DNA of 64,000 bases from assembly GCF_011045215.1 (NCBI RefSeq), contig NZ_CP049201.1. The stretch is one strand, 5' to 3'. Source of the DNA: Escherichia coli (GTDB taxonomy: Bacteria; Pseudomonadota; Gammaproteobacteria; Enterobacterales; Enterobacteriaceae). The notes under the pieces were generated by a model. That model worked only from the letters and a program-made list of their open reading frames with translations, was not told the origin of the DNA and ran no database searches. The position numbers and the translations under genes are program-made. Below, piece by piece: positions 26,825-61,415 of this stretch. Positions within the stretch are counted from its first letter, which is position 1; each line of letters starts with the position of its first letter.

Positions 26825-27085
26825 TTAAATTCCTAATTTATCAAATAAATCATCGGCGTCTTTGGCCTTATGAACATCAACGCCAGCTTCGCTGTTTTTG
26901 ATTGATTGAATAGTTAATTGATTAGGCTCGCGTAAATCAAACGGCAATGCCTTTTCACGCGCGACCTTTGTGAGGGTTATGCGAACCAGGTCAGAGATGG
27001 TCAGCCCCATCCCGGCCAGTACGTCCGCCGCCTGATTCTTCAGATCTTCATCGATTCGTGCGCGAACAAACGCGTTAGCAGCCAT
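26825..27085 (-). CDS. dinJ: antitoxin DinJ
   Basis: 86 aa RHH-type antitoxin upstream of yafQ. Confidence 0.9.
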   Translation of the reverse strand: MAANAFVRARIDEDLKNQAADVLAGMGLTISDLVRITLTKVAREKALPFDLREPNQLTIQSIKNSEAGVDVHKAKDADDLFDKLGI

Positions 27086-27294
27086 TGGGGTATCTCCTGT
27101 GCTGTATATTTATTCAGCTTGAATTGTAGCTCAAATGAGCAACAGCGGCAATTCATGAGCAATTCAATAAACTGATGTATTTACATAATTCACTGAAATA
27201 TATATGTTAATTTTATAATAATGGTTTATTAAGTTTGTTCAGAAACGATCCGGGATACACTGCAACATTAAAGCATGACCAGCCATTATTGAGT

Positions 27295-28044
27295 ATGTCC
27301 TTGCCGTCGATTCCATCCTTTGTATTGTCGGGATTACTGTTGATTTGTTTGCCGTTTTCTTCATTTGCCAGCGCCACCACATCACATATCTCTTTCAGCT
27401 ACGCCGCCCGCCAGCGGATGCAAAACCGTGCGCGTTTATTAAAACAGTACCAAACCCATCTGAAAAAACAGGCCAGCTATATTGTGGAAGGCAATGCCGA
27501 AAGCAGAAGGGCGCTACGCCAGCACAACCGGGAGCAGATAAAACAGCATCCAGAATGGTTTCCTGCACCGCTCAAGGCGAGTGACAGACGCTGGCAGGCG
27601 CTGGCGGAAAACAACCACTTTCTAAGCAGTGACCATCTGCATAACATCACCGAAGTGGCGATTCACCGCCTGGAACAGCAACTTGGCAAGCCTTACGTCT
27701 GGGGCGGCACGCGGCCCGATAAAGGCTTCGACTGTAGCGGGTTGGTTTTTTATGCCTACAACAAGATCCTTGAGGCTAAGCTCCCGCGCACAGCCAATGA
27801 GATGTATCACTACCATCGGGCAACGATTGTGGCGAACAACGACCTGCGCCGGGGAGATTTGCTGTTTTTCCATATTCACAGTCGTGAGATTGCCGACCAT
27901 ATGGGGGTGTATCTGGGCGACGGTCAGTTTATTGAGTCAACGCGCACCGGGGAAACCATTCGGGTATGTCGGTTAGCTGAACCTTTCTGGCAGGATCATT
28001 TTTTAGGCGCGCGGCGGATTTTGACGGAGGAGACGATTTTGTAG
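27295..28044 (+). CDS. yafL: NlpC/P60-family peptidase lipoprotein YafL
   Basis: Signal peptide; NlpC/P60 catalytic Cys in GFDCSGLV and His downstream; 249 aa. Confidence 0.85.
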   Translation: MSLPSIPSFVLSGLLLICLPFSSFASATTSHISFSYAARQRMQNRARLLKQYQTHLKKQASYIVEGNAESRRALRQHNREQIKQHPEWFPAPLKASDRRWQALAENNHFLSSDHLHNITEVAIHRLEQQLGKPYVWGGTRPDKGFDCSGLVFYAYNKILEAKLPRTANEMYHYHRATIVANNDLRRGDLLFFHIHSREIADHMGVYLGDGQFIESTRTGETIRVCRLAEPFWQDHFLGARRILTEETIL

Positions 28045-28220: not shown

Positions 28221-28718
28221 ATGTCGGAATATCGTCGTTATTACATCAAGGGGGGAACATGGTTTTTCACGGTAAATTTACGGAATCGTCGAAGCCATCT
28301 TCTGACCACCCAGTTCCAGACGCTCCGTAACGCCATTATTAACGTTAGGCGAGACAGACCTTTTGAAATTAACGCCTGGGTCGTTTTGCCGGAGCATATG
28401 CATTGCATATGGACATTACCCGAAAGCGATGATGATTTTTCCTCTCGCTGGCGGGAGATTAAAAAGCAATTCACCCATGCTTGTGGATTGAAAAATATCT
28501 GGCAACCGCGTTTTTGGGAGCATGCCATTCGTAATACAAAAGACTATCGCCATCATGTTGATTATATTTATATAAATCCAGTGAAACATGGTTGGGTAAA
28601 GCAGGTGAGTGATTGGCCATTCTCAACGTTCCATCGCGATGTAGCGCGAGGGTTATATCCCATCAATTGGGCGGGAGACGTTACGGATTTGAGTGCCGGG
28701 GAGCGTATTATTTTATAA
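28221..28718 (+). CDS. rayT: REP-associated tyrosine transposase RayT (IS200/IS605-like HuH)
   Basis: 165 aa, HuH motif region (PEHMHCIW), flanked by REP clusters. Confidence 0.85.
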   Translation: MSEYRRYYIKGGTWFFTVNLRNRRSHLLTTQFQTLRNAIINVRRDRPFEINAWVVLPEHMHCIWTLPESDDDFSSRWREIKKQFTHACGLKNIWQPRFWEHAIRNTKDYRHHVDYIYINPVKHGWVKQVSDWPFSTFHRDVARGLYPINWAGDVTDLSAGERIIL

Positions 28719-28719
28719 T

Positions 28720-29135
<416 letters not shown>

Positions 29136-29137: not shown

Positions 29138-30850
29138 TTACATCAACGCCCCCATAATCTTCAACTCCAGCTCGTCCGGCACTTCATTATACGACAGCAC
29201 ATGCAGTCCCGGCGCAAACAATCTCGCATAGCGCGCCAGCAAAGGGCGAAGCTGCGGCGGCACCAGCAGCACCGGGTCTTTCCCCGCCGCTTTCATCTGC
29301 TCTTTTACCTGCGGCATCGTGTTCTGGAACTGGTTGAGCATATTCGGGTCGACCGGCACGCTGTCGAGCATCACTTTCCCGCCCTGTTGCGCCTGATTCA
29401 CCACGTTGGTCAGCAGATTTTCCAGCTCATTATTCAGCGTATACACCGTCAGCTCCTGCTTGCGAACAAACGGATGGGTAATGCTGCGCCGCAGCGCCAG
29501 GCGCACATCGGCTGCCAGCAGAATATGATCTTTGGTCACCGCGCTACTGGCGACCAGCACGGTGGCGATGGTGACGATATCGCGCAGGGAAACGCCTTCA
29601 GTCAGCAGCGCCCGGTACACTTTCAGCAACTGGCTGTAATTGAGCGCCGCGCTTAAATCCTCCGCCAGGCGCGGTGCCATCGACGACAAACGATTATGCA
29701 ACTGCGTAATATCATCATAGTTAAACAAATCAGGAATATAGCTACGCACAATCTTATTCACATGGGTGGCAATCACGCTGGCGCTGTCGATCACCTGATA
29801 CCCCATATTCAGCGCCTTCGCTTTCTGCGCGGGCTGGATCCAGGTCACCGGCATCCCATACGCCGGGTCGTTCCCCAGCACGCCGTCTATCTCGCCGTAG
29901 GTTTCGCTGGAGGGCAGGGCCATCAGTTTATCCGCCGGAATATCCGCTTCATCAGCCTTTATGCCGTTGATGAAAATGGCGTACTGGCTGGGCTTAAGGC
30001 GGAAGTTTTCCCGAATGCGGATCTCCGGCAGCAGCACGCCGTTGCCGTCGGATATCACCTGCCGCACGCCGCGAATCCGCTGGGTGAGCGGGTTGCCCTG
30101 TGCTTTATCGACCAGCGCCACCAGCTTGTAACCGAGGCTTAAACTGATAGGCTCAATCAGCGGTATCGTTTCCCAACTGACCTGCTGCTCGCTGGTTTCG
30201 GTGATGGTGCGGGTCAGCGTTTCGAGGCTTTTCTCTTCCGCCTCCGCCGCCTGCGGGCGTTTGCTCATCCGCCAGCCGGTAAAGCCAAGCAGGGCGCTGA
30301 ACAGCAAAAATGGCAGGTGCGGCATTCCCGGCACCACCGCCAGCACGAACATAATTCCGGTGGCGGTGTAGAGCACCGACGGGCTCGCCAGCAACTGGTG
30401 GCGCACGTCATGGGCGATATCGCCGTTGTCGCTGACGCGGGTAACGATAATCGCCGCCGCGGTGGAAAGCAGCAGGGAAGGGATCTGCGCCACCAGCCCG
30501 TCGCCGATGGTCATCAGCACATACTGCTGGAAGGCGGCATCGGCGCTCAGGTTGTATTTAAATATCCCGATACAGACGCCGCCGATCAGGTTGATGGCCA
30601 GAATCATCATCCCGGCGATGGCATCCCCGCGCACAAACTTCGATGCCCCGTCCATCGCGCCGTAGAAATCGGCCTCGCTGGCGACATCTTTACGCCGGGT
30701 TTGCGCCTGCGCCTGGTTGATCAACCCGGCGTTAAGATCGGCGTCAATCGCCATCTGCTTGCCGGGCATCGCGTCCAGGGTGAAGCGGGCAGAAACCTCG
30801 GAAATACGCTCGGCCCCTTTGGTGACGACGATAAAGTTGATTGTAAACAG
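29138..30850 (-). pseudogene. lfhA: FlhA-like flagellar export protein fragment (Flag-2 locus remnant lfhA)
   Basis: FlhA cytoplasmic and C-terminal TM region (FTLDAMPGKQMAIDADLNAGLI...), N-terminal about 110 aa missing; the 5' part of the long ORF is antisense of lafU. Confidence 0.75.
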
Positions 30851-31607
30851 CGTCAGTAAATCCGAGCGTGAAAGCATTATCGCCGCGCTGCACGGGCAGT
30901 CGATTTTCAACGGTGGCGGGCTGTCGCCGTTAAATAAAATCAGTCCGACGCATCCGCCGAAACCTGCCACCGTGGCGGTGCCGGAAGAGACGGAGAAAAA
31001 AGTGCGCGACGTCAACGAGAAAACGGCGCTGCTGAAGAAGAAATCCGCCACCGAGCTTGGCGAGCTGGCAACCAGTATCAACACCATCGCCCGTGATGCG
31101 CATATGGAAGCGAATCTGGAGATGGAGATTGTCCCGCAGGGATTACGCGTGCTGATTAAAGACGACCAGAACCGCAATATGTTTGAACGCGGCAGCGCGA
31201 AGATTATGCCGTTCTTTAAAACGCTGCTGGTGGAGTTAGCGCCAGTGTTCGACTCGCTCGATAACAAAATTATTATTACCGGGCATACCGATGCGATGGC
31301 CTACAAAAACAATATCTACAACAACTGGAACCTTTCGGGTGACCGCGCGCTTTCGGCTCGTCGGGTGCTGGAAGAGGCCGGAATGCCGGAAGATAAAGTG
31401 ATGCAGGTAAGCGCAATGGCGGATCAGATGCTGCTGGACGCCAAAAATCCGCAAAGCGCGGGCAACCGGCGCATTGAGATTATGGTGCTGACTAAAAGCG
31501 CGTCCGATACGCTGTATCAATACTTTGGTCAGCATGGAGATAAAGTGGTGCAGCCGCTGGTGCAAAAGCTGGATAAGCAGCAGGTGCTTTCACAACGAAC
31601 GCGCTAA
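30850..31607 (+). pseudogene. lafU: MotB-like protein fragment with OmpA-like C-terminal domain (Flag-2 remnant lafU/mbhA)
   Basis: OmpA/MotB peptidoglycan-binding motif (ITGHTDAMAY...NWNLSGDRALSARRVL), lacks N-terminal TM region. Confidence 0.7.
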
Positions 31608-31677
31608 ATGCTGAATCTTTACGCATTTCTCAAACCCTGAAATCACTGTATACTTTACCAGTGTTGAGAGGTGAGCA

Positions 31678-32733
31678 ATGCGTAAAATCATTCATGTGGA
31701 TATGGACTGCTTTTTCGCAGCGGTGGAGATGCGCGACAATCCCGCCCTGCGCGATATCCCTATTGCTATTGGCGGCAGCCGCGAACGTCGGGGGGTGATC
31801 AGCACCGCCAATTATCCCGCGCGTAAATTTGGCGTACGTAGCGCTATGCCGACAGGGATGGCGCTCAAATTATGCCCGCATCTCACCTTGCTTCCGGGGC
31901 GCTTTGACGCCTACAAAGAAGCCTCAAATCATATCCGTGAAATCTTCTCGCGCTACACCTCGCGCATTGAACCGTTGTCACTGGATGAAGCTTATCTCGA
32001 TGTCACCGACAGCGTCCATTGCCACGGTTCTGCGACCCTCATCGCCCAGGAAATCCGCCAGACGATTTTCAACGAGCTGCAACTGACGGCGTCTGCGGGC
32101 GTGGCACCAGTAAAGTTTCTCGCCAAAATCGCCTCCGACATGAATAAACCCAACGGCCAGTTTGTGATTACGCCGGCAGAAGTTCCGGCATTTTTACAAA
32201 CCTTACCACTGGCAAAAATCCCCGGCGTCGGCAAAGTCTCGGCGGCAAAACTGGAAGCGATGGGGCTGCGGACCTGCGGTGATGTACAAAAGTGTGATCT
32301 GGTGATGCTGCTTAAACGCTTTGGCAAATTTGGCCGCATTTTGTGGGAGCGTAGTCAGGGGATTGACGAACGCGATGTTAACAGCGAACGGTTGCGAAAA
32401 TCCGTCGGCGTGGAACGCACGATGGCGGAAGATATTCATCACTGGTCTGAATGTGAAGCGATTATCGAGCGGCTGTATCCGGAACTTGAACGCCGTCTGG
32501 CAAAGGTAAAACCTGATTTACTGATTGCTCGACAGGGGGTGAAATTAAAATTCGACGATTTTCAGCAAACCACCCAGGAGCACGTCTGGCCGCGGCTGAA
32601 TAAAGCTGATCTAATCGCCACCGCGCGTAAAACCTGGGATGAACGCCGCGGCGGGCGCGGTGTGCGTCTGGTGGGGCTGCATGTGACGTTGCTGGATCCG
32701 CAAATGGAAAGACAACTGGTGCTGGGATTATGA
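31678..32733 (+). CDS. dinB: DNA polymerase IV (Y-family)
   Basis: 351 aa, [18 protein letters not shown]-terminus. Confidence 0.95.
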
Positions 32734-33182
32734 ATAACATACAAATAAGAAACTATCAGCCTGGCGATTTTCAGCAACTATGCGCTATTTTCCTTAGAGC
32801 GGTTACGATGACCGCCAGTCAGCATTATTCACCACAACAAATTGCTGCCTGGGCGCAGATTGACGAATCTCGCTGGAAGGAGATACTCGCGAAATCACAA
32901 GTGCGGGTTGCAGTCATTAATGCACAACCGGTTGGTTTTATTTCCCGCATTGAACATTATATCGATATGTTATTTGTTGACCCTGAATACACCCGCCGTG
33001 GGGTTGCCAGCGCTTTGTTAAAACCTTTGATTAAGTCTGAATCCGAACTTACGGTGGACGCCAGCATAACCGCAAAACCCTTTTTTGAACGTTATGGTTT
33101 TCAGACAGTTAAGCAGCAGCGCGTTGAATGCCGTGGAGCTTGGTTTACTAATTTTTATATGCGATATAAACCGCAACATTAA
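32730..33182 (+). CDS. yafP: GNAT-family acetyltransferase YafP
   Basis: 150 aa; 4-nt overlap with dinB stop. Confidence 0.85.
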
Positions 33183-33415
33183 ATCCAGCTTGCAATGAAA
33201 ATAACGCCCGCCTGGTATGTGCGCGTTTTCTTATTCCACAAACTGCAAGGAGGTAAATCATGACAAATCCTTTATCAATGACTCTTTGCAGACCTTTCCA
33301 GGATTAATTCTTTTTTTCTTGCCCTGGATTCGTCTGCCATTTCCTGATTTTTATATTTATATACTCTAAATAATTCGAGTCGCAGTACATGCAACTTGAA
33401 GTATGACGAGTATAA

Positions 33416-33682
33416 ATGGAATGGTACATGGGCAAATATATTCGTCCCTTATCCGATGCGGTATTTACCATCGCATCTGATGACCTGTGGATCGAGAGTT
33501 TAGCGATCCAACAATTACACACCACGGCAAATTTACCCAACATGCAGCGCGTAGTGGGGATGCCAGATTTACACCCCGGACGCGGCTACCCGATTGGCGC
33601 AGCGTTCTTCTCTGTTGGTCGTTTTTACCCGACAAGACGTCGCTGTAACGGTGCTGGAAACAGAAACGGGCCGCTACTCTGA
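33416..33682 (+). pseudogene. ykfJ: RtcB-like ligase N-terminal fragment (ykfJ-like)
   Basis: 88-aa ORF ending in frame-shifted tail; sits upstream of prfH as in K-12. Confidence 0.5.
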
Positions 33683-45735: not shown

Positions 45736-46098
45736 TTAACGACCTGCTGCGCGGAGTTTTCCGTCAGGTTCACCGGCAAGAGTCAGTAATTGTCCCTGGT
45801 CTTCCTGCAGAATAGTCAGGCGACCACCGCGATTGACATACATCGGCGTTTCGGTGGTGTCTTCTTCGGAAATTTTCCCGCGGTTAGTTGGGCGAACATA
45901 TGAGAGTTTGTGTTTGATTTTCACACGGTTCTCATCAAACGGTTCGATTTCCAGATTGAGTGAGACCTTCCCTTTGGTTTTCGTGTTCATCACACCGGAA
46001 GCGACCTCACTGAGAACTGCGCCGATTTTGGTTTCAAATACGCCGCCGTCCAGCTCCCCGATAAATGCCTGCACATCAGTACTGCGTTCGCTAGCCAT
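45736..46098 (-). CDS. hypothetical phage protein
   Basis: 120-aa ORF from MASERSTDVQ; the longer listed ORF extends upstream without support. Confidence 0.4.
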   Translation of the reverse strand: MASERSTDVQAFIGELDGGVFETKIGAVLSEVASGVMNTKTKGKVSLNLEIEPFDENRVKIKHKLSYVRPTNRGKISEEDTTETPMYVNRGGRLTILQEDQGQLLTLAGEPDGKLRAAGR

Positions 46099-46536
46099 TT
46101 TGCTGCTCCTCATCATATCGACCCTGCAAGGTCGGTTGGTTTCTCCACAAAACAGAGAAGAACACCTGCGGTGGCAGCCGCCCGGATGGATTGGGTTATG
46201 AGCCCGTCGTCCGGTGATGCTCTTCTCTGTTTTGCAAAAAAGGACGGTACCAGCCGGAAGCAAGGGTACAAACTGGTACCGCCAGGACTACACACAGCAT
46301 AAAGTTGTGGTGCCGGGTGCCTCCCGGTGCCTGGCGAAGGTTGCACACCAGGCGGGTGGGTATCCACAGAAGGTCGACTGTCAGCCTCAACCTTAACCCG
46401 CGTGCGCTGAGCCGCATTCACCACAACGCTAAGGATTCTCTTTGGTTGAAAATACTTAGCTGTTATGTGCCTGTCTTTTCACCACTTCAGGCTCGGTGGT
46501 ATCCTTTTAAGCCCGTATACATAAAAGGAAAATCAA

Positions 46537-46782
46537 ATGACTTTTGATGAAAAAGAACTTGATAATGCAATTAATAAAATCATCGTAACGTCGCTCTTTT
46601 CCTGTCTCAGCGACACTCAGCAGAAACAGTTCTACGAATCGGCTTTCAACATGATCGAGCGTTGTTGTTTCTGCGATGCCGACGAGTTACCTGAAAAAAT
46701 CAGGAAACAGTTGGCTGATGCTCTTCGAGTGCGACTTTCTGACCAATTTTCTGAAATGTGCTCTCCGAATTTGGACAAATAG
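46537..46782 (+). CDS. hypothetical small protein
   Basis: 81-aa ORF with GGA-type RBS upstream; overlaps a minus-strand ORF, so only one is likely real. Confidence 0.3.
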   Translation: MTFDEKELDNAINKIIVTSLFSCLSDTQQKQFYESAFNMIERCCFCDADELPEKIRKQLADALRVRLSDQFSEMCSPNLDK

Positions 46783-47168
46783 AAAAAGGCCATTTCCATT
46801 CAGGGTCTGATGGAAATACTTCAGCCTGTTCCAAAGCACGGCGTAAAGAGAACACAACTCCAGCCATAATCTGATGTTTCCCATTGGTCCAGCTATCGCC
46901 GCTCTGATCTACAGGGGCGGCTATGTCGTATGACCAAACGACTTCACAGTTATTGTTTAAAATCTGGACTTTCATTTCATACACCTGCTTTAACATGAGT
47001 GCCTAGTGGCACAACATGACTCAACGAATCATCCTGGATTTCATATGCCCCAGGCGGCTACTTCGTGGGCGTCCTGCCTGTTCGTTGTTTCTTTTGGGTA
47101 CATTATGTATCTCAAAGGTACATTGTCAAGTATAAAAAAACCTGCCGAAGCAGGTTCATAAACATTGA

Positions 47169-47843
47169 TTAGGCTTTGATTTTGTATCTTCTTGGTTTTC
47201 CTGAGAAAATCACTGTACCAATTATAGAGCAATTACCGTTGATCTTAATGTAAGGCTCAGGCCAGTTTGGGTTTAACGCTTTGAGATAACGCTGTGTCCC
47301 ATCTTCTATCAACCTTTTGAAGGTGGTTTCGCCTGTATCGTGCATCAATGCAATAACGTCGTCACCGTGGCAGGCAGGTACTTCAGGATCGACAAAAATC
47401 ATGTCTCCCGGGCGGTACTCATCAATCATTGAATCACCTATCACCCGCAAGATATAAGTCATTTCCCCACAGGGTACAGGGCAGGGATACGTTTCTGCTG
47501 TGCTCAAATCAACCTCAGAATATCCAACTTCTTTCCATGCTCCGGCCTGTACCCATGATATGACAGGGACTAATGTGATTTGTTTATTAGTGATTGAAAC
47601 ATCAGGTTTTTTTGTGATGTTCGTTGTCTGGTGTTCTTGATCGAGCCATCCGACAGGCAGGTCGAAACATTTTTCGATGTGTCGTGCCATGCTGTCACCG
47701 ATATTTTTAGTAGCACCATCTCCCATAAACCTGCTGGTCTGGGTTGGCTCGCGATCAATCATAGTGGCAAAGGAAGAATTCCCGCCAACACCATCTCTCA
47801 GTTTTCTGGCGTTAGACCGCCGGATGTCATGGATTGTTTTCAT
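47169..47843 (-). CDS. cI: phage repressor CI (HTH plus S24 LexA-like peptidase domain)
   Basis: 224 aa; C-terminal S24 domain with Ser (GDSM) and Lys; divergent from cro. Confidence 0.85.
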   Translation of the reverse strand: MKTIHDIRRSNARKLRDGVGGNSSFATMIDREPTQTSRFMGDGATKNIGDSMARHIEKCFDLPVGWLDQEHQTTNITKKPDVSITNKQITLVPVISWVQAGAWKEVGYSEVDLSTAETYPCPVPCGEMTYILRVIGDSMIDEYRPGDMIFVDPEVPACHGDDVIALMHDTGETTFKRLIEDGTQRYLKALNPNWPEPYIKINGNCSIIGTVIFSGKPRRYKIKA

Positions 47844-47933
47844 AACGAAATTAAAACCCTTGTACCGTTAAGGTACAAGTATCTTGAAGGTTCATTTCAA
47901 TCATGTAATATGTACACCGGAGGTACATATTGT
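47844..47933. promoter_or_regulatory. cI/cro divergent promoter-operator region
   Basis: Inverted repeats with GTAC cores: cttgtaccgttaaggtacaag (47857-47877) and atgtacaccggaggtacat (47911-47929). Confidence 0.5.
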
Positions 47934-48134
47934 ATGAAAGCGTATTGGGACTCTTTAACCAAAGAACAGCAGGGCGAGTTGGCCGGAAAAGTTGGCTCAA
48001 CACCTGGCTACTTACGGCTGGTTTTCAATGGCTATAAAAAAGCCAGTTTTGTGCTGGCTAAAAAACTTGAGCAATGCACGTCAGGTGCAATTACGAAATC
48101 TGACTTAAGACCGGATATCTATCCGAAAGATTAG
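47934..48134 (+). CDS. cro: Cro-like repressor
   Basis: 67-aa ORF from MKAYWDSL, divergent from cI; the longer listed ORF overlaps cI antisense. Confidence 0.65.
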   Translation: MKAYWDSLTKEQQGELAGKVGSTPGYLRLVFNGYKKASFVLAKKLEQCTSGAITKSDLRPDIYPKD

Positions 48135-48165
48135 CAGAACACTTTCAATTTTTAACCACAGAACG

Positions 48166-48729
48166 ATGAGGCTAACCGTGGGTAAGCATCACTGGAAAAT
48201 AGAAAAACAGCCTGAGTGGTACGTGAAAGCTGTCAGAAAAACTATCGCGGCGTTGCCGGGTGGTTACGCTGAAGCGGCTGACTGGCTCGATGTAACAGAA
48301 AACGCTTTATTCAACCGCCTTCGTGCAGATGGCGATCAGATTTTCCCGCTGGGATGGGCAATGGTTTTACAGCGTGCTGGTGGCACTCACTTCATTGCTG
48401 ATGCTGTGGCGCAGTCTGCAAATGGCGTCTTTGTGTCTCTTCCTGACGTCGAGGATGTGGACAACGCCGATATCAACCAACGCCTGCTGGAAGTCATTGA
48501 ACAGATCGGCAGTTATTCAAAACAGATTCGTTCAGCAATTGAAGACGGTGTAGTGGAACCGCATGAGAAGACAGCAATTAACGACGAGCTGTACCTCTCA
48601 ATTTCGAAGCTGCAGGAGCATGCAGCACTGGTCTACAAAATTTTTTGCATTTCAGAAAGTAATGACGCCCGCGAGTGTGCAGCTCCGGGCGCCGTGGCGT
48701 GTCGTGACTGTGGAGAAACTAACGCATGA
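48166..48729 (+). CDS. phage regulatory protein (CII-like / YdaT-family position)
   Basis: 187 aa immediately after cro; product assignment by position only. Confidence 0.4.
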
Positions 48730-49073
48730 ACAGTTTAACAACACACTACCGTCGCTCGCAACTGATTGCGCTTCCTGTACCGGGTGGAAAAGCGAAGGTG
48801 GAGTATTGCTATGCAGTAAATGTACCAGGTGACAGGGAAATTGTAACCCACAGCTTTGCAGAGTGGGCTGTGGGTGATTTCAACCGGCAGAAGGAGACAG
48901 TCCTTTGCGACAAGTTAACCGCTGGTTCAAAGATCACTACGGAGTGCCCGTCAGAGTCATTCGTTGGGAGCCGGAAACACAACGTGTTATCTACCTCCGC
49001 GAAGGCTATGAGCATGAGTGCTTCAGCCCGCTCGAACAGTTTCGTCGTAAATTCAGGGAAATAGAGGTCGGTC

Positions 49074-50015
49074 ATGAGCACTAAATTAACCGGCTATGTA
49101 TGGGATGGTTGCGCTGCATCAGGCATGAAATTATCCAGCGTGGCAATTATGGCCCGCCTGGCTGATTTCAGTAATGACGAAGGTGTGTGCTGGCCATCAA
49201 TTGAAACCATTGCCCGCCAGATTGGCGCGGGAATGAGTACCGTCAGAACGGCTATCGCACGGCTGGAAGCAGAAGGCTGGTTAACGCGTAAGGCGCGTCG
49301 CCAGGGTAACCGCAATGCGTCGAATGTTTATCAGCTTAACGTTGCGAAGCTTCAGGCAGCGGCATTTTCTCAACTGTCAGATTCTGACCCGTCAAAATCT
49401 GACGCATCAAAATCTGACCCGTCAAAATTTGATGCGTCGAAATCTGGCAAAAAAGCGGGTTTTCACCCGTCAGAATCTGGCGGGGATCCGTCAGTAAAAT
49501 CAAAACATGATCCGTCAGATAAAAAAACTTCTCGTCCGGACGCTTCGCAACCGGACACGCAGACGGCTGAACAGGAGTTTTTAACTCGCCATCCTGATGC
49601 GGTTGTATTCAGCCCTAAAAAGCGCCAGTGGGGAACGCAGGATGATTTGACCTGCGCACAGTGGCTCTGGAAAAAAATCATCGCCCTGTACGAGCAGGCC
49701 GCCGAATGTGACGGCGAGGTGGTTCGTCCCAAAGAACCGAACTGGACAGCCTGGGCAAACGAAATTCGCCTGATGTGTGTGCAGGATGGTCGTACTCATA
49801 AACAAATCTGCGAGATGTACAGCCGCGTCAGTCGCGATCCGTTCTGGTGCCGTAACGTGCTCAGCCCGTCGAAGCTGCGGGAAAAATGGGATGAGCTTTC
49901 CCTGCGCTTATCGCCGTCCGTCAGCACGTACACCGAAAAACGCGAAGACCCGTACTTCAAAGCCAGTTACGACAACGTGGACTACAGCCAGATCCCGGCA
50001 GGATTCAGGGGGTGA
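49074..50015 (+). CDS. replication initiation protein (lambda O-like) with internal iteron-encoded repeats
   Basis: HTH N-terminus (GMSTVRTAIARLEAEGWLT), repeated SDPSKSDASKSDPSKFDASKS segment. Confidence 0.7.
   Translation: MSTKLTGYVWDGCAASGMKLSSVAIMARLADFSNDEGVCWPSIETIARQIGAGMSTVRTAIARLEAEGWLTRKARRQGNRNASNVYQLNVAKLQAAAFSQLSDSDPSKSDASKSDPSKFDASKSGKKAGFHPSESGGDPSVKSKHDPSDKKTSRPDASQPDTQTAEQEFLTRHPDAVVFSPKKRQWGTQDDLTCAQWLWKKIIALYEQAAECDGEVVRPKEPNWTAWANEIRLMCVQDGRTHKQICEMYSRVSRDPFWCRNVLSPSKLREKWDELSLRLSPSVSTYTEKREDPYFKASYDNVDYSQIPAGFRG
49375..49445. repeat. tandem about 18-bp iterons, candidate phage replication origin
   Basis: tcaaaatctgac(c/g)c(g/a) repeated 4 times inside the O-like gene. 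Confidence 0.5.
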
Positions 50016-50506
50016 GCATGAGTCTTTTGAATGACGTTCAGAAATTCATTGAAGCCCATCCGGGCTGTACTTCCGGAGATATTGCGGATGCTTTTGCCGG
50101 TTACTCACGGCAGCGCGTTCTGCAGTCAGCAAGCAAGTTACGTCAGAGTGGGCGTGTGGCTCACCGTTGTGAAGGAGATACACGCAGACATTTCCCGCGC
50201 CTGACTGAGAGAGCGCAGGAACCGGAACCACAACCAGTTCGTGAAACCAGACCTGTGCGCAATTTCTATGTCGGCACTAACGATCCCCGTGTGATTTTGT
50301 GCCTGACCCGCCAGGCGGAAGAACTGGAGTCCAGGGGCTTATACCGTCGTGCTGCAACCGTGTGGATGGCGGCATTCCGTGAAAGCCACTCCCAGCCAGA
50401 ACGAAACAATTTTCTGGCGCGTCGTGAGCGGTGCTTACGGAAAAGCAGCAAGCGCGCTGCATCGGGTGAAGAGTGGTATCTGTCAGGGAATTACGTGGGG
50501 GCTTAA
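50012..50506 (+). CDS. phage protein with PerC-like C-terminal domain
   Basis: AEELESRGLYRRAATVWMAAFRES resembles the PerC/Pch signature. Confidence 0.45.
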   Translation: MSMSLLNDVQKFIEAHPGCTSGDIADAFAGYSRQRVLQSASKLRQSGRVAHRCEGDTRRHFPRLTERAQEPEPQPVRETRPVRNFYVGTNDPRVILCLTRQAEELESRGLYRRAATVWMAAFRESHSQPERNNFLARRERCLRKSSKRAASGEEWYLSGNYVGA

Positions 50507-51159
50507 TGAGTAATAAATATTGCCAGGCGCTGGTGGAACTGCGGAACAAACCAGCCCATGAACTGAAGGAAGTGGGCGATCAGTGGCGCACGCCGGACAA
50601 CATTTTCTGGGGAATTAACACCCTGTTTGGCCCGTTTGTTCTGGATCTGTTCACTGACGGTGATAACGCCAAATGTGCCGCGTATTACACGGCGGAAGAC
50701 AACGCGCTGGCGCATGACTGGTCAGAACGTCTTGCGGAGCTTAAAGGTGCTGCCTTTGGTAATCCCCCATACAGCCGCGCCAGTCAGCATGAGGGGCAAT
50801 ACATCACCGGCATGCGTTACATCATGAAACATGCCAGTGCCATGCGTGATAAGGGCGGGCGCTATGTTTTCCTGATCAAAGCTGCCACCAGCGAAGTGTG
50901 GTGGCCGGAAGATGCAGATCATATTGCTTTTATTCGCGGGCGTATTGGTTTTGAACTGCCTGTCTGGTTTATCCCGAAAGACGAGAAGCAGGTACCGACA
51001 GGAGCTTTTTTCGCTGGTGCTATTGCTGTTTTTGACAAGACCTGGAAGGGACCGGCAATCAGCTACATCGGGCGCGATGAACTTGAGGCATGTGGTGAGG
51101 CGTTTCTGGCGCAGGTTCGCCAGCAGGCGGAAAAACTGGTCAGGGAGATGGCGGCATGA
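50506..51159 (+). CDS. phage DNA N6-adenine methyltransferase (Dam-like)
   Basis: NPPY motif (FGNPPYSRA); start at MSNKYCQ. Confidence 0.75.
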   Translation: MSNKYCQALVELRNKPAHELKEVGDQWRTPDNIFWGINTLFGPFVLDLFTDGDNAKCAAYYTAEDNALAHDWSERLAELKGAAFGNPPYSRASQHEGQYITGMRYIMKHASAMRDKGGRYVFLIKAATSEVWWPEDADHIAFIRGRIGFELPVWFIPKDEKQVPTGAFFAGAIAVFDKTWKGPAISYIGRDELEACGEAFLAQVRQQAEKLVREMAA

Positions 51160-51482
51160 CGACGTTAACTCAATGCCAGCAGCAGGTGCTGGATATGCTG
51201 ATTTCTTATCAGAAAGAACGTGGCTTCCCGCCAACCAATCAGGAGGTGGCAACCATGCTGGGATACCGTTCGGTGAATGCAGCGGTGGAGCATCTTCGCG
51301 CACTGGAGAAAAAAGGCGTCATCACGATAAAGCGTGGCGTGGCCCGGGGGATAACGCTTCATACCGCGGTGAAGGACGACGACAGCGAGGCGGTCGGGAT
51401 TATCCGCGCACTGCTTGCCGGTGAGGAAAACGCAAGGCTGCGTGCAACCCACTGGTTACATGAGAGGGACCTGAAAGTATGA
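51156..51482 (+). CDS. LexA-like DNA-binding domain protein
   Basis: N-terminus resembles LexA winged helix (QQQVLDMLISYQKERGFPPTNQEVATMLGYRSVNAAVEHLRALEKKGVI). Confidence 0.6.
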   Translation: MTTLTQCQQQVLDMLISYQKERGFPPTNQEVATMLGYRSVNAAVEHLRALEKKGVITIKRGVARGITLHTAVKDDDSEAVGIIRALLAGEENARLRATHWLHERDLKV

Positions 51483-51868
51483 AGCTGATCCTGCCTTTTC
51501 CGCCCAGCGTGAACACGTACTGGCGACACCCCAACAAAGGGGCGTTTGCTGGTAAGAGCCTGATAAGCGCGGCGGGGCGAAAATTCCAGAGCGCGGCGTG
51601 CGCAGCAATAGTTGAGCAGTTACGTCGTCTGCCGAAACCAACGTCGGCACCTGCTTCAGTGGAGATCGTGTTGTTTCCTCCGGATAACCGGATCCGCGAT
51701 CTGGACAACTATAACAAGGCGCTGTTTGACGCCCTGACCCACGCGGGTGTGTGGGAAGACGACAGTCAGGTGAAAAGAATGCTGGTGGAGTGGGGGCCGG
51801 TTATCCCGGAAGGGAAGGTCGAGATCACTATCAGTAAGTACGAGAAAACGGCGGGTGCAGCCGCCTGA
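51479..51868 (+). CDS. rusA: Holliday junction resolvase RusA
   Basis: 129 aa, conserved DLDNYNKALFDAL region. Confidence 0.85.
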   Translation: MKLILPFPPSVNTYWRHPNKGAFAGKSLISAAGRKFQSAACAAIVEQLRRLPKPTSAPASVEIVLFPPDNRIRDLDNYNKALFDALTHAGVWEDDSQVKRMLVEWGPVIPEGKVEITISKYEKTAGAAA

Positions 51869-51887
51869 TTAAGAGGAGAAACGAAGT

Positions 51888-52685
51888 ATGAATAATCTGA
51901 TGGTCATTGATGGTATTGAAGTTCGTCGTGATGCTTATGGGCGTTACAGCCTGAACGATCTGCACAGGGCTGCCGGTTCTCAGGATAAGCATAAGCCTGC
52001 ATTCTGGCTCCGCAATGAGCAAACCGAACGTTTAATAAGCGAGTTGCAGATTTGCAACTCGGTCAATATAGAGCCAGTTAACGTTAGTCGTGGCGGAAAT
52101 AACCAGGGGACGTATGTCTGCAAAGAACTGGTGTATGCCTATGCAATGTGGATCAGCCCGTCATTCCATCTGAAGGTGATCCGTACTTTCGATATGGTAA
52201 CCAGCGCACCGGAAAAATTATCCGGGCAGGCTGCTGACAAGATGCAGGCTGGCGTGATTCTGCTGGACTTTATGCGCCGGGAGTTAAACCTGTCTAACTC
52301 ATCTGTGCTTGGGGCCTGTCAGAAACTCCAGGAGGCTGTTGGCTTACCGAATCTGGCACCACGCTATGCCATTGATGCTCCTGCTGACGCGCCTGATGGC
52401 TCAAGTCGCCCTACGCTGTCGCTGAGTGCACTGCTGAAACAGTATGGTATCCGCCTGACAGCTAATCAGGCATATCACCAGATGGCGAAGCTGGGGATCG
52501 TTGAACAACGCGAACGATACAGCCGTACCGCGATTAACAACATCAAAAAATTCTGGTCGCTGACGGCGAAAGGCTGCATGTTCGGCAAGAACATTACCAG
52601 TCCTGCAAATCCGCGCGAGACGCAGCCGCATTTCTTCGAATCCCGATTCCCTGAGCTGTTAAAGCTGCTCGATACCGTTCATTGA
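51888..52685 (+). CDS. KilA-N domain protein (antirepressor-like)
   Basis: N-terminal KilA-N-like region (VIDGIEVRRDAYGRYSLNDLHRAAG). Confidence 0.5.
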   Translation: MNNLMVIDGIEVRRDAYGRYSLNDLHRAAGSQDKHKPAFWLRNEQTERLISELQICNSVNIEPVNVSRGGNNQGTYVCKELVYAYAMWISPSFHLKVIRTFDMVTSAPEKLSGQAADKMQAGVILLDFMRRELNLSNSSVLGACQKLQEAVGLPNLAPRYAIDAPADAPDGSSRPTLSLSALLKQYGIRLTANQAYHQMAKLGIVEQRERYSRTAINNIKKFWSLTAKGCMFGKNITSPANPRETQPHFFESRFPELLKLLDTVH

Positions 52686-52686
52686 G

Positions 52687-53682
52687 GTGACCGTGAGAGC
52701 ACTACTGACCCCTGAAATTGCCCCGCGTATGGGGATCGTATTGTTCAGACCAGGTTCAGAGCTGATGCCCCTGTTTATGCAGGGGCGTGTACTGCTGGAG
52801 CCTGAGCCGGAACGTTATTCATCTTTCGCCAGTGGTGCCGTTCCCGCGGCATCACAACCGCTGGCGGATGATCCTGCTGTTCGGGCCGTGTTCCGCAATG
52901 AGGCAGTGATCCGTCGTGCTGGTGGCGTGGAATGTCTTGAAAGCTGGTTACTTCGTGAAAAAGGCTGCCAGTGGCCTCATTCCGACTGGCACAGCGAGAA
53001 CATGACCACAATGCGACACGCTCCGGGCGCAATCCGTCTGTGCTGGCACTGTGATAACCAGCTGCGCGATCAGTTCACGGAACGGCTGGAATCAATGGCA
53101 ACGGATAACTGTGCCCGCTGGGTGTTGTCTGTTGTGCGTCGGGATCTCGGTTTTGATGATAGTCACGTTGTGACAATGCCGGAACTGTGCTGGTGGCTGA
53201 TTCGTAATGACCTGGCGGATGCCTTACCGGAAAGTGCAGCCCGTAAGGCACTGAGATTACCAAAGCCTGTTGTGCCGTCTGTCACCCGGGAAAGTGACCT
53301 TGTGCCTTCGGTTCCTGCCACCAGCATCATCCAGGATAAGGCAAAAAAGGTGCTGGCGCTGAAAGTGGATCCGGAGTCGCCGGAGTCTTTTATGTTACGC
53401 CCAAAACGTCGCCGCTGGGTTAATGAGAAGTACACGCGCTGGGTTAAGACACAGCCGTGTGCATGTTGTGGAAAGCCCGCTGATGATCCCCACCACCTGA
53501 TAGGCCACGGTCAGGGGGGAATGGGTACAAAAGCGCATGACCTCTTTGTGTTGCCTTTGTGCAGAAAGCATCACGACGAGCTGCATGCGGATACCGTGGC
53601 ATTTGAAGAGAAGTATGGCTCCCAGCTGGAGCTGATATTTCGTTTTATCGATCGTGCGCTGGCAATTGGCGTGCTGGCCTGA
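52687..53682 (+). CDS. phage protein, DUF968-like (Cys/His-rich)
   Basis: C-terminal CxxC...HH...PLCRKHHDELH pattern. Confidence 0.5.
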   Translation: MTVRALLTPEIAPRMGIVLFRPGSELMPLFMQGRVLLEPEPERYSSFASGAVPAASQPLADDPAVRAVFRNEAVIRRAGGVECLESWLLREKGCQWPHSDWHSENMTTMRHAPGAIRLCWHCDNQLRDQFTERLESMATDNCARWVLSVVRRDLGFDDSHVVTMPELCWWLIRNDLADALPESAARKALRLPKPVVPSVTRESDLVPSVPATSIIQDKAKKVLALKVDPESPESFMLRPKRRRWVNEKYTRWVKTQPCACCGKPADDPHHLIGHGQGGMGTKAHDLFVLPLCRKHHDELHADTVAFEEKYGSQLELIFRFIDRALAIGVLA

Positions 53683-53696
53683 TTTGGTGGAGAAAG

Positions 53697-54065
53697 TTGA
53701 TGCGTGATATTCAGATGGTTCTTGAGCGTTGGGGAGCATGGGCGGCGAGTGATAGTTCAGGCGTTGACTATTCACCTATAGCTGCTGGGTTTAAGGGACT
53801 TCTTCCCTATACCAGCAAGAAACGCTTGGCTTGTTCGGATAGTGATGCATTAATTATTGAAGGTTGTCTTGCTCGTCTAAAGCAAAAAAGACCTTATGAG
53901 CATTCGCTTCTTGTGGCACATTATTTATACAGAATATCCAAGCGTAAGATTGCAAAGGCGCGTGGAAAGGATGAGAAATTGATACGTATAGAAATACAGC
54001 TAGCCGAAGGATTTATTGATGGCTGCCTTTCCATGCTAGATCTAACATTAGATTTGGACGTTTAA
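53697..54065 (+). CDS. Q: late-gene antitermination protein Q
   Basis: 122 aa with LERWGAWA motif; positioned before the lysis genes. Confidence 0.65.
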   Translation: MMRDIQMVLERWGAWAASDSSGVDYSPIAAGFKGLLPYTSKKRLACSDSDALIIEGCLARLKQKRPYEHSLLVAHYLYRISKRKIAKARGKDEKLIRIEIQLAEGFIDGCLSMLDLTLDLDV

Positions 54066-54066
54066 T

Positions 54067-54091
54067 AATACGCCCCATGCAGGGGCGTATT
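54067..54091. terminator. bidirectional hairpin terminator between Q and the KAP NTPase gene
   Basis: Perfect inverted repeat aatacgcccc-atgca-ggggcgtatt flanked by A/T runs. Confidence 0.5.
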
Positions 54092-54093
54092 AT

Positions 54094-55425
54094 TTACTGG
54101 ATGAATGACATTTGATTAATATATTTTATCAATAACTCTCTGGGTGTAGTACTCCAAAAATTTAGGTGTTCATAATCAGTATAAACATTGGTGAATTTTT
54201 TAAGTTCTTCATCACTTTTAGGGGCAAATCGCTCATTAAGAGTAATACTGTCTTTAATTATTCCGAAGAATACAATAGATATTTCAGGAATTTGCGATCT
54301 TCTCTCATAAGAATAAGGTATTTCTTTTATGTTAAGCAGATCTGCTAAATGAGATATAGATTCTGCGGTAATTTCTTGTTTTAGTTTTTCCTTGTCACCA
54401 AAGCAATGTATGAAGACAGCTACGACAAAGATCTTATTTATTAAAGGATCACTGCTTTTGTACTCATCGTCGTTTAATAGTTGAAAAATGTTAAGATTGC
54501 GTGAAAAAGTTTGTGTTTCACGTAAGGATAAGTTGGTTCGTTGAATTAAATCACGGATAAATCTACCAGATAAACTATTAATTTCATTTAATGATTTTGT
54601 CTTGTCTACAAGGTAATTCCAATATATAACAGATGTTTTACATACGACGTGACCATTTATTAAACATGTGTCTGGAAGCGTGATGGTATATTTTATAAAC
54701 TTGTCAAGATACTTTTGTGAGTTAATACTATAACCATAAATATGATTTATCGATGCTTTTAATTGTTCTGTGTTTGTAACTAAAATAAAAAAGACATTAT
54801 TGATGTCAAAAATGTGTTTTATTGTTTCAATGACATTTGTTGAAAAACTCGGCTTACATCGGTCTAATTCATCAATTATAATTACTATCTTTTGACTTTC
54901 TGAAATGCTTTCGATGCAAGATTTAAGTGAATTTATGTTTTTCTCTGATTCCATATGGTCTTCAAGCAAATTTTCAATAGTCCCATCTATTGCTGCATTG
55001 CTTGCTTTCTTCATCGCATCTTGGAATTCTTCGGAAACTTCACTAGCCTCCTGTCGTAAAAACCAACCTGCACCAGCTTTTAGTACCGTTTTTAAACCAA
55101 AGCGAATTGCAGGAAGAGATCTCTTAATGAAGTGTTGTTTTTCTTCCTCAGGTAAAATGCTGGCAATTGCAGAGGTTATGAGAAGTAATGGAGATTCTGC
55201 ATGATCCCCTTTAAAGGCATCAATATAAACAACTTTAGATTCAGTTTCTTGCTCAATAATGAGATTTTTCAGTTTGATACTAAATTCTGTTTTCCCTGTT
55301 CCCCATGCGCCGTCTATTACCAGTGGTGAAATGTCTGCCTCTGGTTTTAGCAACTTGATGATATTTTCAGCGATGTTTCTGCGTTGGAACTCGTCACGTT
55401 CAGTGAAAGATAGTGTATCTAACAT
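54094..55425 (-). CDS. KAP-family P-loop NTPase (prophage cargo; candidate defense protein)
   Basis: 443 aa; Walker A DGAWGTGKT, Walker B IIIDELDR; AT-rich; antisense to the late operon. Confidence 0.75.
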   Translation of the reverse strand: MLDTLSFTERDEFQRRNIAENIIKLLKPEADISPLVIDGAWGTGKTEFSIKLKNLIIEQETESKVVYIDAFKGDHAESPLLLITSAIASILPEEEKQHFIKRSLPAIRFGLKTVLKAGAGWFLRQEASEVSEEFQDAMKKASNAAIDGTIENLLEDHMESEKNINSLKSCIESISESQKIVIIIDELDRCKPSFSTNVIETIKHIFDINNVFFILVTNTEQLKASINHIYGYSINSQKYLDKFIKYTITLPDTCLINGHVVCKTSVIYWNYLVDKTKSLNEINSLSGRFIRDLIQRTNLSLRETQTFSRNLNIFQLLNDDEYKSSDPLINKIFVVAVFIHCFGDKEKLKQEITAESISHLADLLNIKEIPYSYERRSQIPEISIVFFGIIKDSITLNERFAPKSDEELKKFTNVYTDYEHLNFWSTTPRELLIKYINQMSFIQ

Positions 55426-55487
55426 AATATAAACCTATTAACTCCTACAGTAAAAAACGAATAATACGACTTTGGGATTAAAAATCA

Positions 55488-55516
55488 TTAACGCGGTCCG
55501 CAAAAATTCTTGTAAT
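55488..55516 (+). promoter_or_regulatory. candidate late promoter (PR'-like)
   Basis: TTAACG -35 and TGTAAT -10 with 17-bp spacer, upstream of terminator and holin. Confidence 0.35.
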
Positions 55517-55548
55517 CTGTTAAGAGTGGTTACTTCGCCACACAGCTT

Positions 55549-55582
55549 AAACCCGCCGTCGAGCGGGTTTTGTCGTTTTTGT
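55549..55582 (+). terminator. intrinsic terminator (tR'-like, Q target)
   Basis: aacccgc-cgtcga-gcgggtt hairpin followed by ttttgtcgttttt. Confidence 0.45.
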
Positions 55583-55721
55583 TGCTGGGGATTCGTTGGG
55601 CCTGGCCTATCCAGCAGTTATCCATTGGTTCGGCTCTTTGACGTTTCCGCTTCTGATTTGCGGTACATGATGTTCCCTCAATTTGCACCTGCTGTATCAG
55701 CGAGGTGAGAGATAACTACAA

Positions 55722-56048
55722 ATGCCTCATAACCCAAATACTTGGCTGGACTTGGTCCAGAGCTGGTGGCGTGGAGACACACCGCTGGGCGCAGTGATTA
55801 TGTCGATTGTTATGGCTGGTTTGCGTATCGCCTACTTTGGTGGTGGTGGCGGCTGGAAGCGAAAAACGCTCGAGATTTTGCTCTGTGGCGCTCTGACTCT
55901 GACTTTTGCATCCGCGCTTGAGTATGTCGGATGGCCTAAATCACTTTCTGTTGCCATTGGTGGTGGCGTTGGGTTGATCGGTGTCGATGCTATTCGTGGG
56001 GCTGCAATGAGAGTAATCGGTAATAAGTTTGGTGGCTCTAAGGAGTAA
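55722..56048 (+). CDS. S: holin
   Basis: 108 aa, hydrophobic helices, charged C-terminus; directly upstream of endolysin. Confidence 0.6.
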   Translation: MPHNPNTWLDLVQSWWRGDTPLGAVIMSIVMAGLRIAYFGGGGGWKRKTLEILLCGALTLTFASALEYVGWPKSLSVAIGGGVGLIGVDAIRGAAMRVIGNKFGGSKE

Positions 56049-56051
56049 TTT

Positions 56052-56528
56052 ATGCAGGTACTAAATTCCCAGCGTAAAGCTTTCCTCGATATGGTGGCAT
56101 GGTCAGAAGGAACGGATAACGGGCGACAACCGACACGTAACCACGGTTATGATGTTATTGTTGGCGGCGAACTGTTCACTGATTACTCCGATCACCCTCG
56201 CAAACTTGTCACGCTAAACCCCAAACTCAAATCAACAGCCGCCGGGCGTTATCAGCTTCTTTCACGCTGGTGGGATGCTTACCGTAAACAGCTTGGTTTG
56301 AAAGACTTCTCCCCCAAAAGCCAGGACGCAGTGGCATTGCAGCAGATTAAAGAGCGTGGCGCTTTACCGATGATTGATCGCGGTGATATCCGTCAGGCTA
56401 TCGATCGTTGCAGCAATATCTGGGCGTCATTACCCGGCGCTGGTTACGGTCAGTATGAACATAAAATCGGTGACCTGATTGCCCGATTCAAAGAGGCTGG
56501 CGGGGTGGTAAATGAAGTTGAGCTATAA
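56052..56528 (+). CDS. R: endolysin (lambda R-like lytic transglycosylase)
   Basis: Matches lambda R as remembered (NSQRKAFLDMVAWSEGTDNGRQPTRNHGYDVIVGG...). Confidence 0.9.
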   Translation: MQVLNSQRKAFLDMVAWSEGTDNGRQPTRNHGYDVIVGGELFTDYSDHPRKLVTLNPKLKSTAAGRYQLLSRWWDAYRKQLGLKDFSPKSQDAVALQQIKERGALPMIDRGDIRQAIDRCSNIWASLPGAGYGQYEHKIGDLIARFKEAGGVVNEVEL

Positions 56529-57582: not shown

Positions 57583-57894
57583 ATGTCAAACATAAAAATC
57601 AAACAAGCTATTGAAAAGATTGCGGAGTTCAGAGCAGCATCTGCTGCGATGGCTGATGCTCACATGGTTCTTATTACAGAGCTATTGAACTCAATTGAGG
57701 ATATCCGCAAAAACTCTGGTGATAATCTCTCTGAGTTTGAAAAAGGACAGGTTGCTCTCTACATAAAAATTAGCCCAGTTGTGAAAAATGGAATTTCGAG
57801 TATTGAAAAATATAATGAGTCTTTAAGTTCAGACTATGTTGAGGCTATGAACTCCTTATCTAAAATTGCGGGAGGGAATTCAAATGTCGATTGA
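57583..57894 (+). CDS. hypothetical protein (first gene of AT-rich three-gene cargo operon)
   Basis: 103-aa ORF with RBS, predicted helical; AT-rich. Confidence 0.4.
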   Translation: MSNIKIKQAIEKIAEFRAASAAMADAHMVLITELLNSIEDIRKNSGDNLSEFEKGQVALYIKISPVVKNGISSIEKYNESLSSDYVEAMNSLSKIAGGNSNVD

Positions 57895-61404: not shown

Positions 61405-61415
61405 CTGAGGTAATT

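Follow-up and report, generated by a model that had tools for sequence, protein, structure and literature searches.

The intact Flag-2 lateral flagella cluster of Escherichia coli is related to the laf systems of Vibrio and Aeromonas, and the fhiA-mbhA scar left by its deletion in E. coli K-12 was reportedly described by Ren, Beatson, Parkhill and Pallen in 2005 (J Bacteriol 187:1430). Strains K-12 and B keep only the fhiA (lfhA) and mbhA (lafU) remnants (PMC3032704; PMC6993521). Flag-2 was lacking in 76 of 100 E. coli strains, all of them with truncated copies, and such copies were present in 531 of 4028 Enterobacterales genomes (PMC6993521). The same 2.5-kb remnant pair is on record for Flag-2-negative E. 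albertii (PMC11420993), and Flag-2 has been described, without intermediate forms, as 'present or entirely absent' (PMC5422975). The segment considered here comprises positions 29138-31607 of a 64,000-nt stretch of E. coli DNA (NCBI RefSeq assembly GCF_011045215.1, contig NZ_CP049201.1), the whole of which is referred to as the window. This segment is with certainty the canonical Flag-2 deletion scar, lfhA'-'lafU, and is not due to chance; its junction lies within an imperfect inverted repeat formed by the two genes, and a junction at the identical nucleotide is found in several other enterobacterial genera.

Compared with the fhiA-mbhA scar of K-12, the window contains the same two remnants in the same orientation and the same place (yafL/rayT ... 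dinB); its junction is base-for-base that of K-12 strain HST04, and the window is collinear with that genome through it. The two loci differ in the number of repetitive extragenic palindromic (REP) units upstream (3.9 in the window, about 2 in K-12) and in yafNO, which is missing downstream in the window. Compared with intact Flag-2 loci (E. coli 042, W, EC958 and E148), the remnants of the window are 94-96% identical to the cluster ends at the DNA level and are flanked by the same genes, whereas lfhB ... lafT (35.1-38.1 kb) and both 5' gene ends are absent. A 120-bp junction probe was covered to at least 80% in 4085 of 5426 complete E. coli genomes. The original prediction, made from the letters of the window alone, had placed the locus 'as in K-12-like strains'; this is accurate for the junction itself and too narrow for its distribution, which takes in most of these E. 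coli genomes as well as other genera. The scar is already known and ordinary for E. coli, as published (PMC6993521, PMC3032704). A single scar such as that of the window is a textbook case which alone adds nothing new, and the comparative pattern described below is not specific to the window. Regarding the allele, the version in the window is rare (best identity 96.7% among the 5426 complete E. coli genomes, compared with 98.5-98.9% for window positions 36000-60000), and the scar locus is very polymorphic, with about 4-5% difference between alleles.

The mechanical listing of open reading frames (ORFs) contained a frame of 709 aa at 29138-31267 (minus strand) and one of 296 aa at 30717-31607 (plus strand), overlapping at about 30717-31267; positions 29138 and 31607 mark the two gene stop codons. 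The locus of E. coli E148 (NZ_AP024518.1, here L001), in which the Flag-2 cluster is complete (lfhA to lafU) and annotated between hicAB/yafL and dinB, served as the intact reference. Window positions 29143-30841 aligned without gaps to L001 2421-4119, and window positions 30836-33631 aligned to L001 39476-42271. Because the left alignment ends and the right one begins there, the deletion junction was placed at 30839-30841 (no strand assigned), where GAT is the sole sequence common to both end points; in the base alignment of the window, both E148 ends and K-12, the overlap amounts to 5/6 when counted as GT[T/G]GAT. Missing from the window relative to E148 are L001 positions 4120-39481 (35,362 bp), and the equivalent segment in three other intact E. 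coli loci measures 35,083 to 38,138 bp. The lost content comprises 130 lfhA codons, 52 lafU codons and everything between them (lfhB ... lafT, about 45 lateral-flagellum genes). The remnants are divergent and abut, with zero Flag-2 genes between them, as the alignment leaps from L001 4119 to 39482, and both breaks lie within membrane-helix codons. The original prediction had interpreted the locus as the footprint of a deletion of the whole Flag-2 cluster, with the junction near 30850. The alignment to an intact genome that it proposed as a check defined both end points, bore out the loss of the whole cluster, and located the junction 9-11 bp from the predicted position. Full-length flhA or motB homologs, named in advance as evidence to the contrary, did not appear on realignment, since neither gene is full length.

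The Pfam matches and the alignment to E148 agree that an FlhA-like gene meets a MotB-like gene on the opposite strand, as had been predicted. The 709-aa ORF matched FHIPEP (E=5.7e-189) at profile positions 99-656 of 657 only, whereas intact E148 LfhA matches positions 1-656; the ORF at 30717-31607 matched OmpA only, whereas intact LafU matches MotB_plug (residues 19-70) and OmpA. Given this partial coverage, both genes are 5'-truncated. The lfhA remnant (Flag-2 FlhA homologue, 29138-30841, minus strand) consists of the C-terminal 567 codons and the stop codon (29138-29140), and its frame in the window is open, without a stop. Its loss is exactly 390 nt (130 codons, residues 1-130), and according to the hydropathy of intact LfhA the cut (marked here and below by ^) falls inside the helix FVVGFVVFIILMI^INFIVV at residues 118-136. 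Hydrophobic segments at about residues 205-223, 245-263 and 282-311 are retained; overall, four hydrophobic helices remain, together with the cytoplasmic loop of FHIPEP, the linker and the cytoplasmic domain at the C-terminus. The predicted lack of the N-terminal transmembrane region is thus correct as to residues 1-130 but overstated as to the four membrane helices that remain. The complete N-terminal membrane domain of eight helices that characterizes a functional FlhA export gate is not present. Beyond the junction the lfhA frame of the window stays open for 142 codons antisense to lafU, which accounts for the length of the mechanical 709-aa ORF; K-12 has a stop within this extension.

The lafU remnant (Flag-2 MotB homologue, 30842-31607, plus strand) holds codons 53-307 and the stop codon and aligns to L001 39482-40247; the codon for Ile53 is ATT at 30840-30842, and the loss is 158 nt (52 codons). 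As predicted for the MotB-like gene, the N-terminus is gone: the cytoplasmic N-terminal part and the single membrane helix VAFADFTLAMMALFMTLW, which bears the conserved Asp, are both missing, and the OmpA-like peptidoglycan-binding domain is retained. With FADFTLAMMALFMTLW deleted and no match to MotB_plug, the remnant does not have the features of a functional MotB-type stator. Neither the LfhA nor the LafU remnant is able to do its original job. In scar-bearing genomes the NCBI annotation shows a 261-aa 'LafU' ORF (window 30822-31607, plus strand, GTG start at 30822; annotated as lafU at L002 5908-6693 in K-12), whose first 6-7 codons (MTTIKL) are antisense lfhA and whose protein cluster, P0001, has 6260 members. 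This ORF is read here as an annotation product of the fusion and not as evidence of a working gene. A separate observation concerns window positions 30893-30960 within the lafU remnant, where four changes private to the window (T, A, G and G at +103, +107, +109 and +118 from the junction) are found within 16 nt; two non-synonymous changes are associated with this cluster (S36T and, further on, A54V), a pattern suggestive of a short stretch of imported DNA or of an event that changed several bases at once.

When both genes are written in their coding orientation, the break is at TTTGTGGTGTTTATCATCCTGATGATC^ATCAAC in lfhA and at ATGGCGCTGTTTATGACCCTGTGGAT^TGTCAAC in lafU. An imperfect inverted repeat of 33 nt, with 23/33 matching positions, holds both breakpoints, which are in register to within 1 nt; the match is 22/33 at a shift of +1, compared with 5-13/33 at other shifts, and the 23/33 repeat ranks second best among about 1.9 million pairs of sequence windows between lfhA and lafU. 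The repeat is made by similar helix codons, encoding VVFIILMIIN and ALFMTLWIVN, and because lfhA and lafU are divergent this coding similarity takes the inverted form in the chromosomal sequence. The inner arms of the repeat border the lost segment, and the scar retains the outer 5 bp (GTTGA-TTG-TCAAC). The resulting mini-palindrome, GTTGA-TTG-T[A/C]AAC at 30836-30848, contains the junction; its right arm is TAAAC in the window, owing to a private C-to-A change at 30845. Microhomology in direct orientation at the join is limited to 2-3 nt (GAT, shortened to AT in Citrobacter and Atlantibacter). Both marks of a repeat-guided deletion are thus present, namely breaks that occupy corresponding places in the two arms of an inverted repeat and a short direct repeat where they join.

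Similar products are known from the precise excision of Tn5 and Tn10 and from deletions of the Glickman-Ripley type, in which, as in the scar, an imperfect inverted repeat bounds the removed segment, a direct repeat of 2-3 nt lies at its base, and a single copy of the direct repeat survives in the product. Unlike in transposon excision, the repeat of the scar is short and imperfect (23/33), its arms lie 35-38 kb apart in ordinary coding sequence, and no transposase is present. The skin element of Bacillus subtilis (sigK) and the nifD and fdxN elements of Anabaena resemble the scar in that a large segment is removed at an invariant position with minimal identity at the crossover; in contrast to these excisions, each of which restores a gene, the loss of Flag-2 destroys two genes, and no element-encoded recombinase is found in Flag-2 according to the E148 annotation. 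A comparison of the end points by eye, without a tool-based test, with insertion sequence (IS) terminal repeats and the gyrase cleavage consensus gave no convincing match. RayT, encoded next to the scar in the window, was considered as the deletion agent and rejected, as hicAB replaces rayT in some scar-bearing E. coli and rayT is absent beside the scars of other genera.

Scars outside E. coli were located by a search with the 261-aa LafU' protein followed by exact-protein look-ups (when contigs were scanned with the LfhA remnant, the universal FlhA motif DAMPGKQM dominated the hits and only three close relatives emerged). LafU' proteins with OmpA only, beginning MTTIKL^IVNSVSK or MKL^IVNSVS, with the residues before the cut again representing antisense lfhA, were found in Citrobacter gillenii, C. 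amalonaticus, Citrobacter sp., Kluyvera ascorbata, Kluyvera sp., Atlantibacter hermannii, Atlantibacter sp., enterobacterium H11S18 and E. albertii. When the DNA was compared, seven loci from five genus-level lineages proved to be joined at the identical nucleotide (...AAGTT[G/A]AT^[T/C]GTNAA...), among them E. albertii, K. ascorbata, C. amalonaticus, two Atlantibacter species and enterobacterium H11S18. The flanks of these scars are genus-specific and differ at about 20% of bases, including many synonymous sites; junction positions -3 and +1 follow the genus in scar and intact alleles alike. The gene order is conserved (yafL-like peptidase, lfhA', 'lafU, followed in Kluyvera and Citrobacter by dinB, yafP and pepD), and the start codons differ between genera, being simply the first available. 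Intact clusters diverge between genera equally inside and outside the junction. Within species, scar and intact forms can be nearly the same: in K. ascorbata the LafU protein of the scar (P0029) is 100% identical to the intact one (P0060), and in C. gillenii the two share 98.9% identity. In A. hermannii scars predominate (Flag-2 in 0/5 strains; PMC6993521) and intact LafU proteins are rare (P0128, P0129). These two proteins rule out that Atlantibacter is fixed for the scar, a state that would have forced a reading of the remnants as functional.

The remnants show little decay. In a comparison sample of 16 scar-bearing (initially 8) and 4 intact E. coli genomes, no stops or indels were found in lfhA' and lafU' of the 16 scar alleles, and in an even sample of the ranking 45 of 45 scar hits had the exact query length. 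Pairwise synonymous divergence (dS) in the E. coli remnants was 0.09-0.27, with a ratio of non-synonymous to synonymous divergence (dN/dS) of 0.01-0.09, even between two scar strains. Private changes in seven E. coli scar alleles numbered 91 synonymous to 23 non-synonymous; the lineage of UID2404240036 is relaxed, with 13 synonymous to 11 non-synonymous private changes. Scar alleles of E. coli do not form a clade; diversity among scars equals that among intact alleles and that between the classes; roughly 50 bp on each side of the junction are nearly invariant within the species. A scar-specific haplotype, the footprint of a sweep and a dip in diversity near the junction were sought in the E. 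coli alleles, and none was found. Among the seven cross-genus loci the 567-codon lfhA' frame is open in six, the exception being E. albertii; between genera dS of lfhA' is saturated (0.9-1.4) with dN/dS of 0.025-0.13, and the two Atlantibacter species, compared with each other, give a dS of 1.29 and a dN/dS of 0.025. In A. hermannii scars the polymorphism of lfhA' is 38 synonymous to 3 non-synonymous, and one genome has a 119-bp deletion in the remnant. For lfhA, alleles of E. albertii and E. coli are separated by a dS of 0.23-0.29, overlapping the 0.14-0.27 seen among E. coli alleles themselves. Stops, frameshifts and a dN/dS near 1, as expected of a decaying pseudogene, are thus not seen in the scar alleles of E. 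coli; a decayed copy turns up occasionally elsewhere. The label 'ordinary decaying pseudogene' does not fit the data for lfhA' and lafU', whether the scar arose once or many times. Counts of singleton and polymorphic non-synonymous and synonymous changes cannot separate direct selection from exchange with intact alleles, and are not used here as proof of function. A decayed copy was observed in the E. albertii type strain NBRC 107761 (L015), where a 22-bp deletion (aligned window position 29886) shifts the frame of lfhA' and a 41-bp insertion (aligned window position 31597) replaces the last codons of lafU'.

Close pairs of scar and intact E. coli genomes were identified by joining the retained parts of intact alleles into 'virtual scars', which were used as search queries. 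The E148 version matched real scars at 100% over 2470 bp, and the UCPROB-001 version at 99.9%. Between HN257 (scar) and E148 (intact) there is 1 single-nucleotide polymorphism (SNP) in 10.9 kb of flank, the BLAST mismatch in the right flank being the T/G of the microhomology overlap and not an SNP; for Z1322HEC0005 (scar) and UCPROB-001 (intact), with 2 SNPs in 7.7 kb, and for CMZE123 (scar) and razor3 (intact), with 0 SNPs in 3.8 kb, the right-flank mismatch was assumed to have the same cause. The backgrounds of the three pairs are 4-6% apart, and the interiors of the clusters have diverged similarly (2-4.7%); each background thus carries a scar and a long-resident cluster of its own.

It is tentatively proposed that the same deletion did not happen once but recurred across E. 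coli backgrounds and across genera. The conserved quasi-palindrome of lfhA and lafU membrane-helix codons would repeatedly direct the removal of all 35-38 kb at one and the same nucleotide, through an illegitimate, RecA-independent join guided by the quasi-palindrome (e.g., by bypass of a stem or by symmetric breakage) and not through homologous recombination; numerous E. coli lineages and no fewer than five enterobacterial genera would have been affected. Recurrence is supported by the base-identical junction across genera, the diverged cluster interiors, the clean E. coli pairs and the matching LafU of scar and intact loci. If recurrence holds, most scars would be young, and the remnants would for that reason resemble intact genes under purifying selection; the invariant junction on flanks specific to genus or clone, and the coexistence of intact and scar forms, would be explained as well. 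Nearly undecayed remnants together with an identical scar across genera are not easily explained by a single old deletion. The remnants lfhA' and lafU' are most likely inert, because they have no N-termini and no intergenic space for a promoter. Taken together, a canonical scar, a repeat-guided join, recurrence and inert remnants very probably form the best explanation overall, the element of recurrence being held with much less assurance than the whole. Several points weigh against it. An inverted repeat of 23/33 with a direct repeat of 2-3 nt should support slippage very poorly when its arms lie 35-38 kb apart, and the annotation of the E148 cluster includes neither a recombinase nor a transposase. 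Homologous recombination has been documented at the Flag-2 locus in sequence type 131 (ST131), where Flag-2 was described as an 'insertion', and alleles at the scar locus of E. coli are mosaic. As recombination between near-identical strains leaves no trace, the three clean pairs are not proof of three de novo deletions, and the low dN/dS could come from remnant alleles passing through intact genomes in which they are under selection.

The last of these points belong equally to a less probable reading, in which one old deletion, before the genera split or early with later spread, persists as a long-lived presence/absence polymorphism that recombination moves about while exchanging its flanks, so that the remnants inherit the purifying selection acting in intact genomes. 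With a microhomology of only 2-3 nt, chance recurrence of one junction is very unlikely, and a single origin is therefore the default reading; both forms coexist in every well-sampled species (scar about 75% in E. coli and E. albertii; also Kluyvera, Citrobacter and, with the intact form rare, A. hermannii), the ST131 recombination, the mosaic alleles and the overlap of lfhA dS between E. albertii and E. coli with that within E. coli are in line with it, and the near invariance of some 50 bp on each side of the junction makes clean transfers conceivable within E. coli. It would, however, require that both alleles outlast every speciation from Escherichia to Atlantibacter, and, as positions -3 and +1 track the genus, that conversion tracts end 1-3 nt from the homology boundary or that mutations arise in parallel; the missing scar-specific haplotype and diversity dip, and the genus-specific character of intact clusters inside as well as outside the junction, also speak against it. 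That one or both remnants, among them an LfhA of four helices and the cytoplasmic ring domain, are working genes under direct purifying selection in the scar state, e.g. as modulators of the primary flagellar export gate, is improbable. The lfhA' frame kept open in six of seven lineages at saturated dS and low dN/dS, the 38:3 ratio in A. hermannii, the intact frames of the 16 E. coli alleles and the 91:23 ratio of singletons in seven of them would all suit such a function, but the genes abut head to head without intergenic promoter space, LafU' has neither a membrane helix nor a signal sequence to reach the periplasm, where the OmpA domain acts, and the start codons vary between genera as the first ones at hand; decayed copies exist (the 22-bp and 119-bp deletions in the E. 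albertii type strain and A. hermannii), the one relaxed E. coli lineage has 11 non-synonymous to 13 synonymous changes, and scar alleles identical to intact ones explain the conservation without function. Least probable is a site-specific and possibly reversible excision and integration, in which a recombinase acting on pseudo-palindromic sites in lfhA and lafU would excise the cluster as a circle and leave an attB-like scar. A serine recombinase, for example, needs only a 2-nt core, and the invariant junction, the 2-nt common core (AT) across genera, the palindromic scar and the host-specific flanks right up to the junction would be in line with this, as would the all-or-none occurrence of Flag-2 (PMC5422975). 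Annotation of the four intact E. coli clusters shows no recombinase (hypothetical proteins were not sequence-searched), the dyad symmetry is a consequence of similar helix codons in two divergent genes, and the cluster interiors are as diverged between backgrounds as the flanks, giving no hint of a mobile element passing from host to host.

If the proposed recurrence is true, the lfhA/lafU junction would be a natural, hard-wired deletion hot spot that switches off a costly or immunogenic surface structure across a bacterial family, and the use of Flag-2 presence or absence as a lineage marker, e.g. for ST131 subclades, would change. If instead all scars descend from one ancient allele, the locus would represent an unusually long-lived trans-species presence/absence polymorphism.

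According to the ORFs and the transferred annotation, the scar lies between yafL/rayT and dinB. Its left neighbor is rayT (yafM; 28221-28718, plus strand), encoding a REP-associated tyrosine transposase, followed by a tandem REP-containing repeat (28747-29135, no strand; 3.9 copies of a 101-bp unit with 93% matches in Tandem Repeats Finder) that occupies the space between rayT and the lfhA stop codon and has about two copies in K-12. A related REP unit lies within the intact Flag-2 cluster of E148 (L001 24820-24958). What lies between yafL and lfhA (window 26825-28044, and the left side of lfhA in other strains) is variable: rayT and REP units in the window and in K-12, hicAB in E148, 98E11, HN257 and MMC-J-0078, nothing before lfhA' in MS6198, and neither rayT nor hicAB in other genera. 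To the right, a LexA box of the dinB promoter (CTGTATACTTTACCAG, 31646-31661, plus strand; pattern CTG-N10-CAG) is located between the lafU stop and the dinB start. The dinB gene (31678-32733, plus strand, from the ORF listing) overlaps yafP (32730-33182) by ATGA; the toxin-antitoxin pair yafN-yafO, which lies between dinB and yafP in K-12, is absent in the window, E148, HN257 and UCPROB-001.

A second all-or-none deletion scar is situated 2 kb downstream (window 33590-33670, junction at about 33628-33631), where 1,023 bp that join rtcB to prfH in E148 and HN257 are missing; as in K-12, what remains is RtcB' and 'PrfH, with 4 bp (CCCG) overlapping at the join. Its state is independent of that of Flag-2, and both states coexist in E. 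coli: UCPROB-001 has Flag-2 and the rtcB-prfH deletion, HN257 the Flag-2 scar and intact rtcB-prfH. Regarding the outer flanks of the window (1-25000 and 46000-64000), a type VI secretion system (T6SS) vgrG/Tle1 effector island adjoins fadE, with no complete E. coli genome matching it over more than 63%, and a lambdoid prophage with a KAP-family NTPase occupies the thrW tRNA-Thr site after proA.

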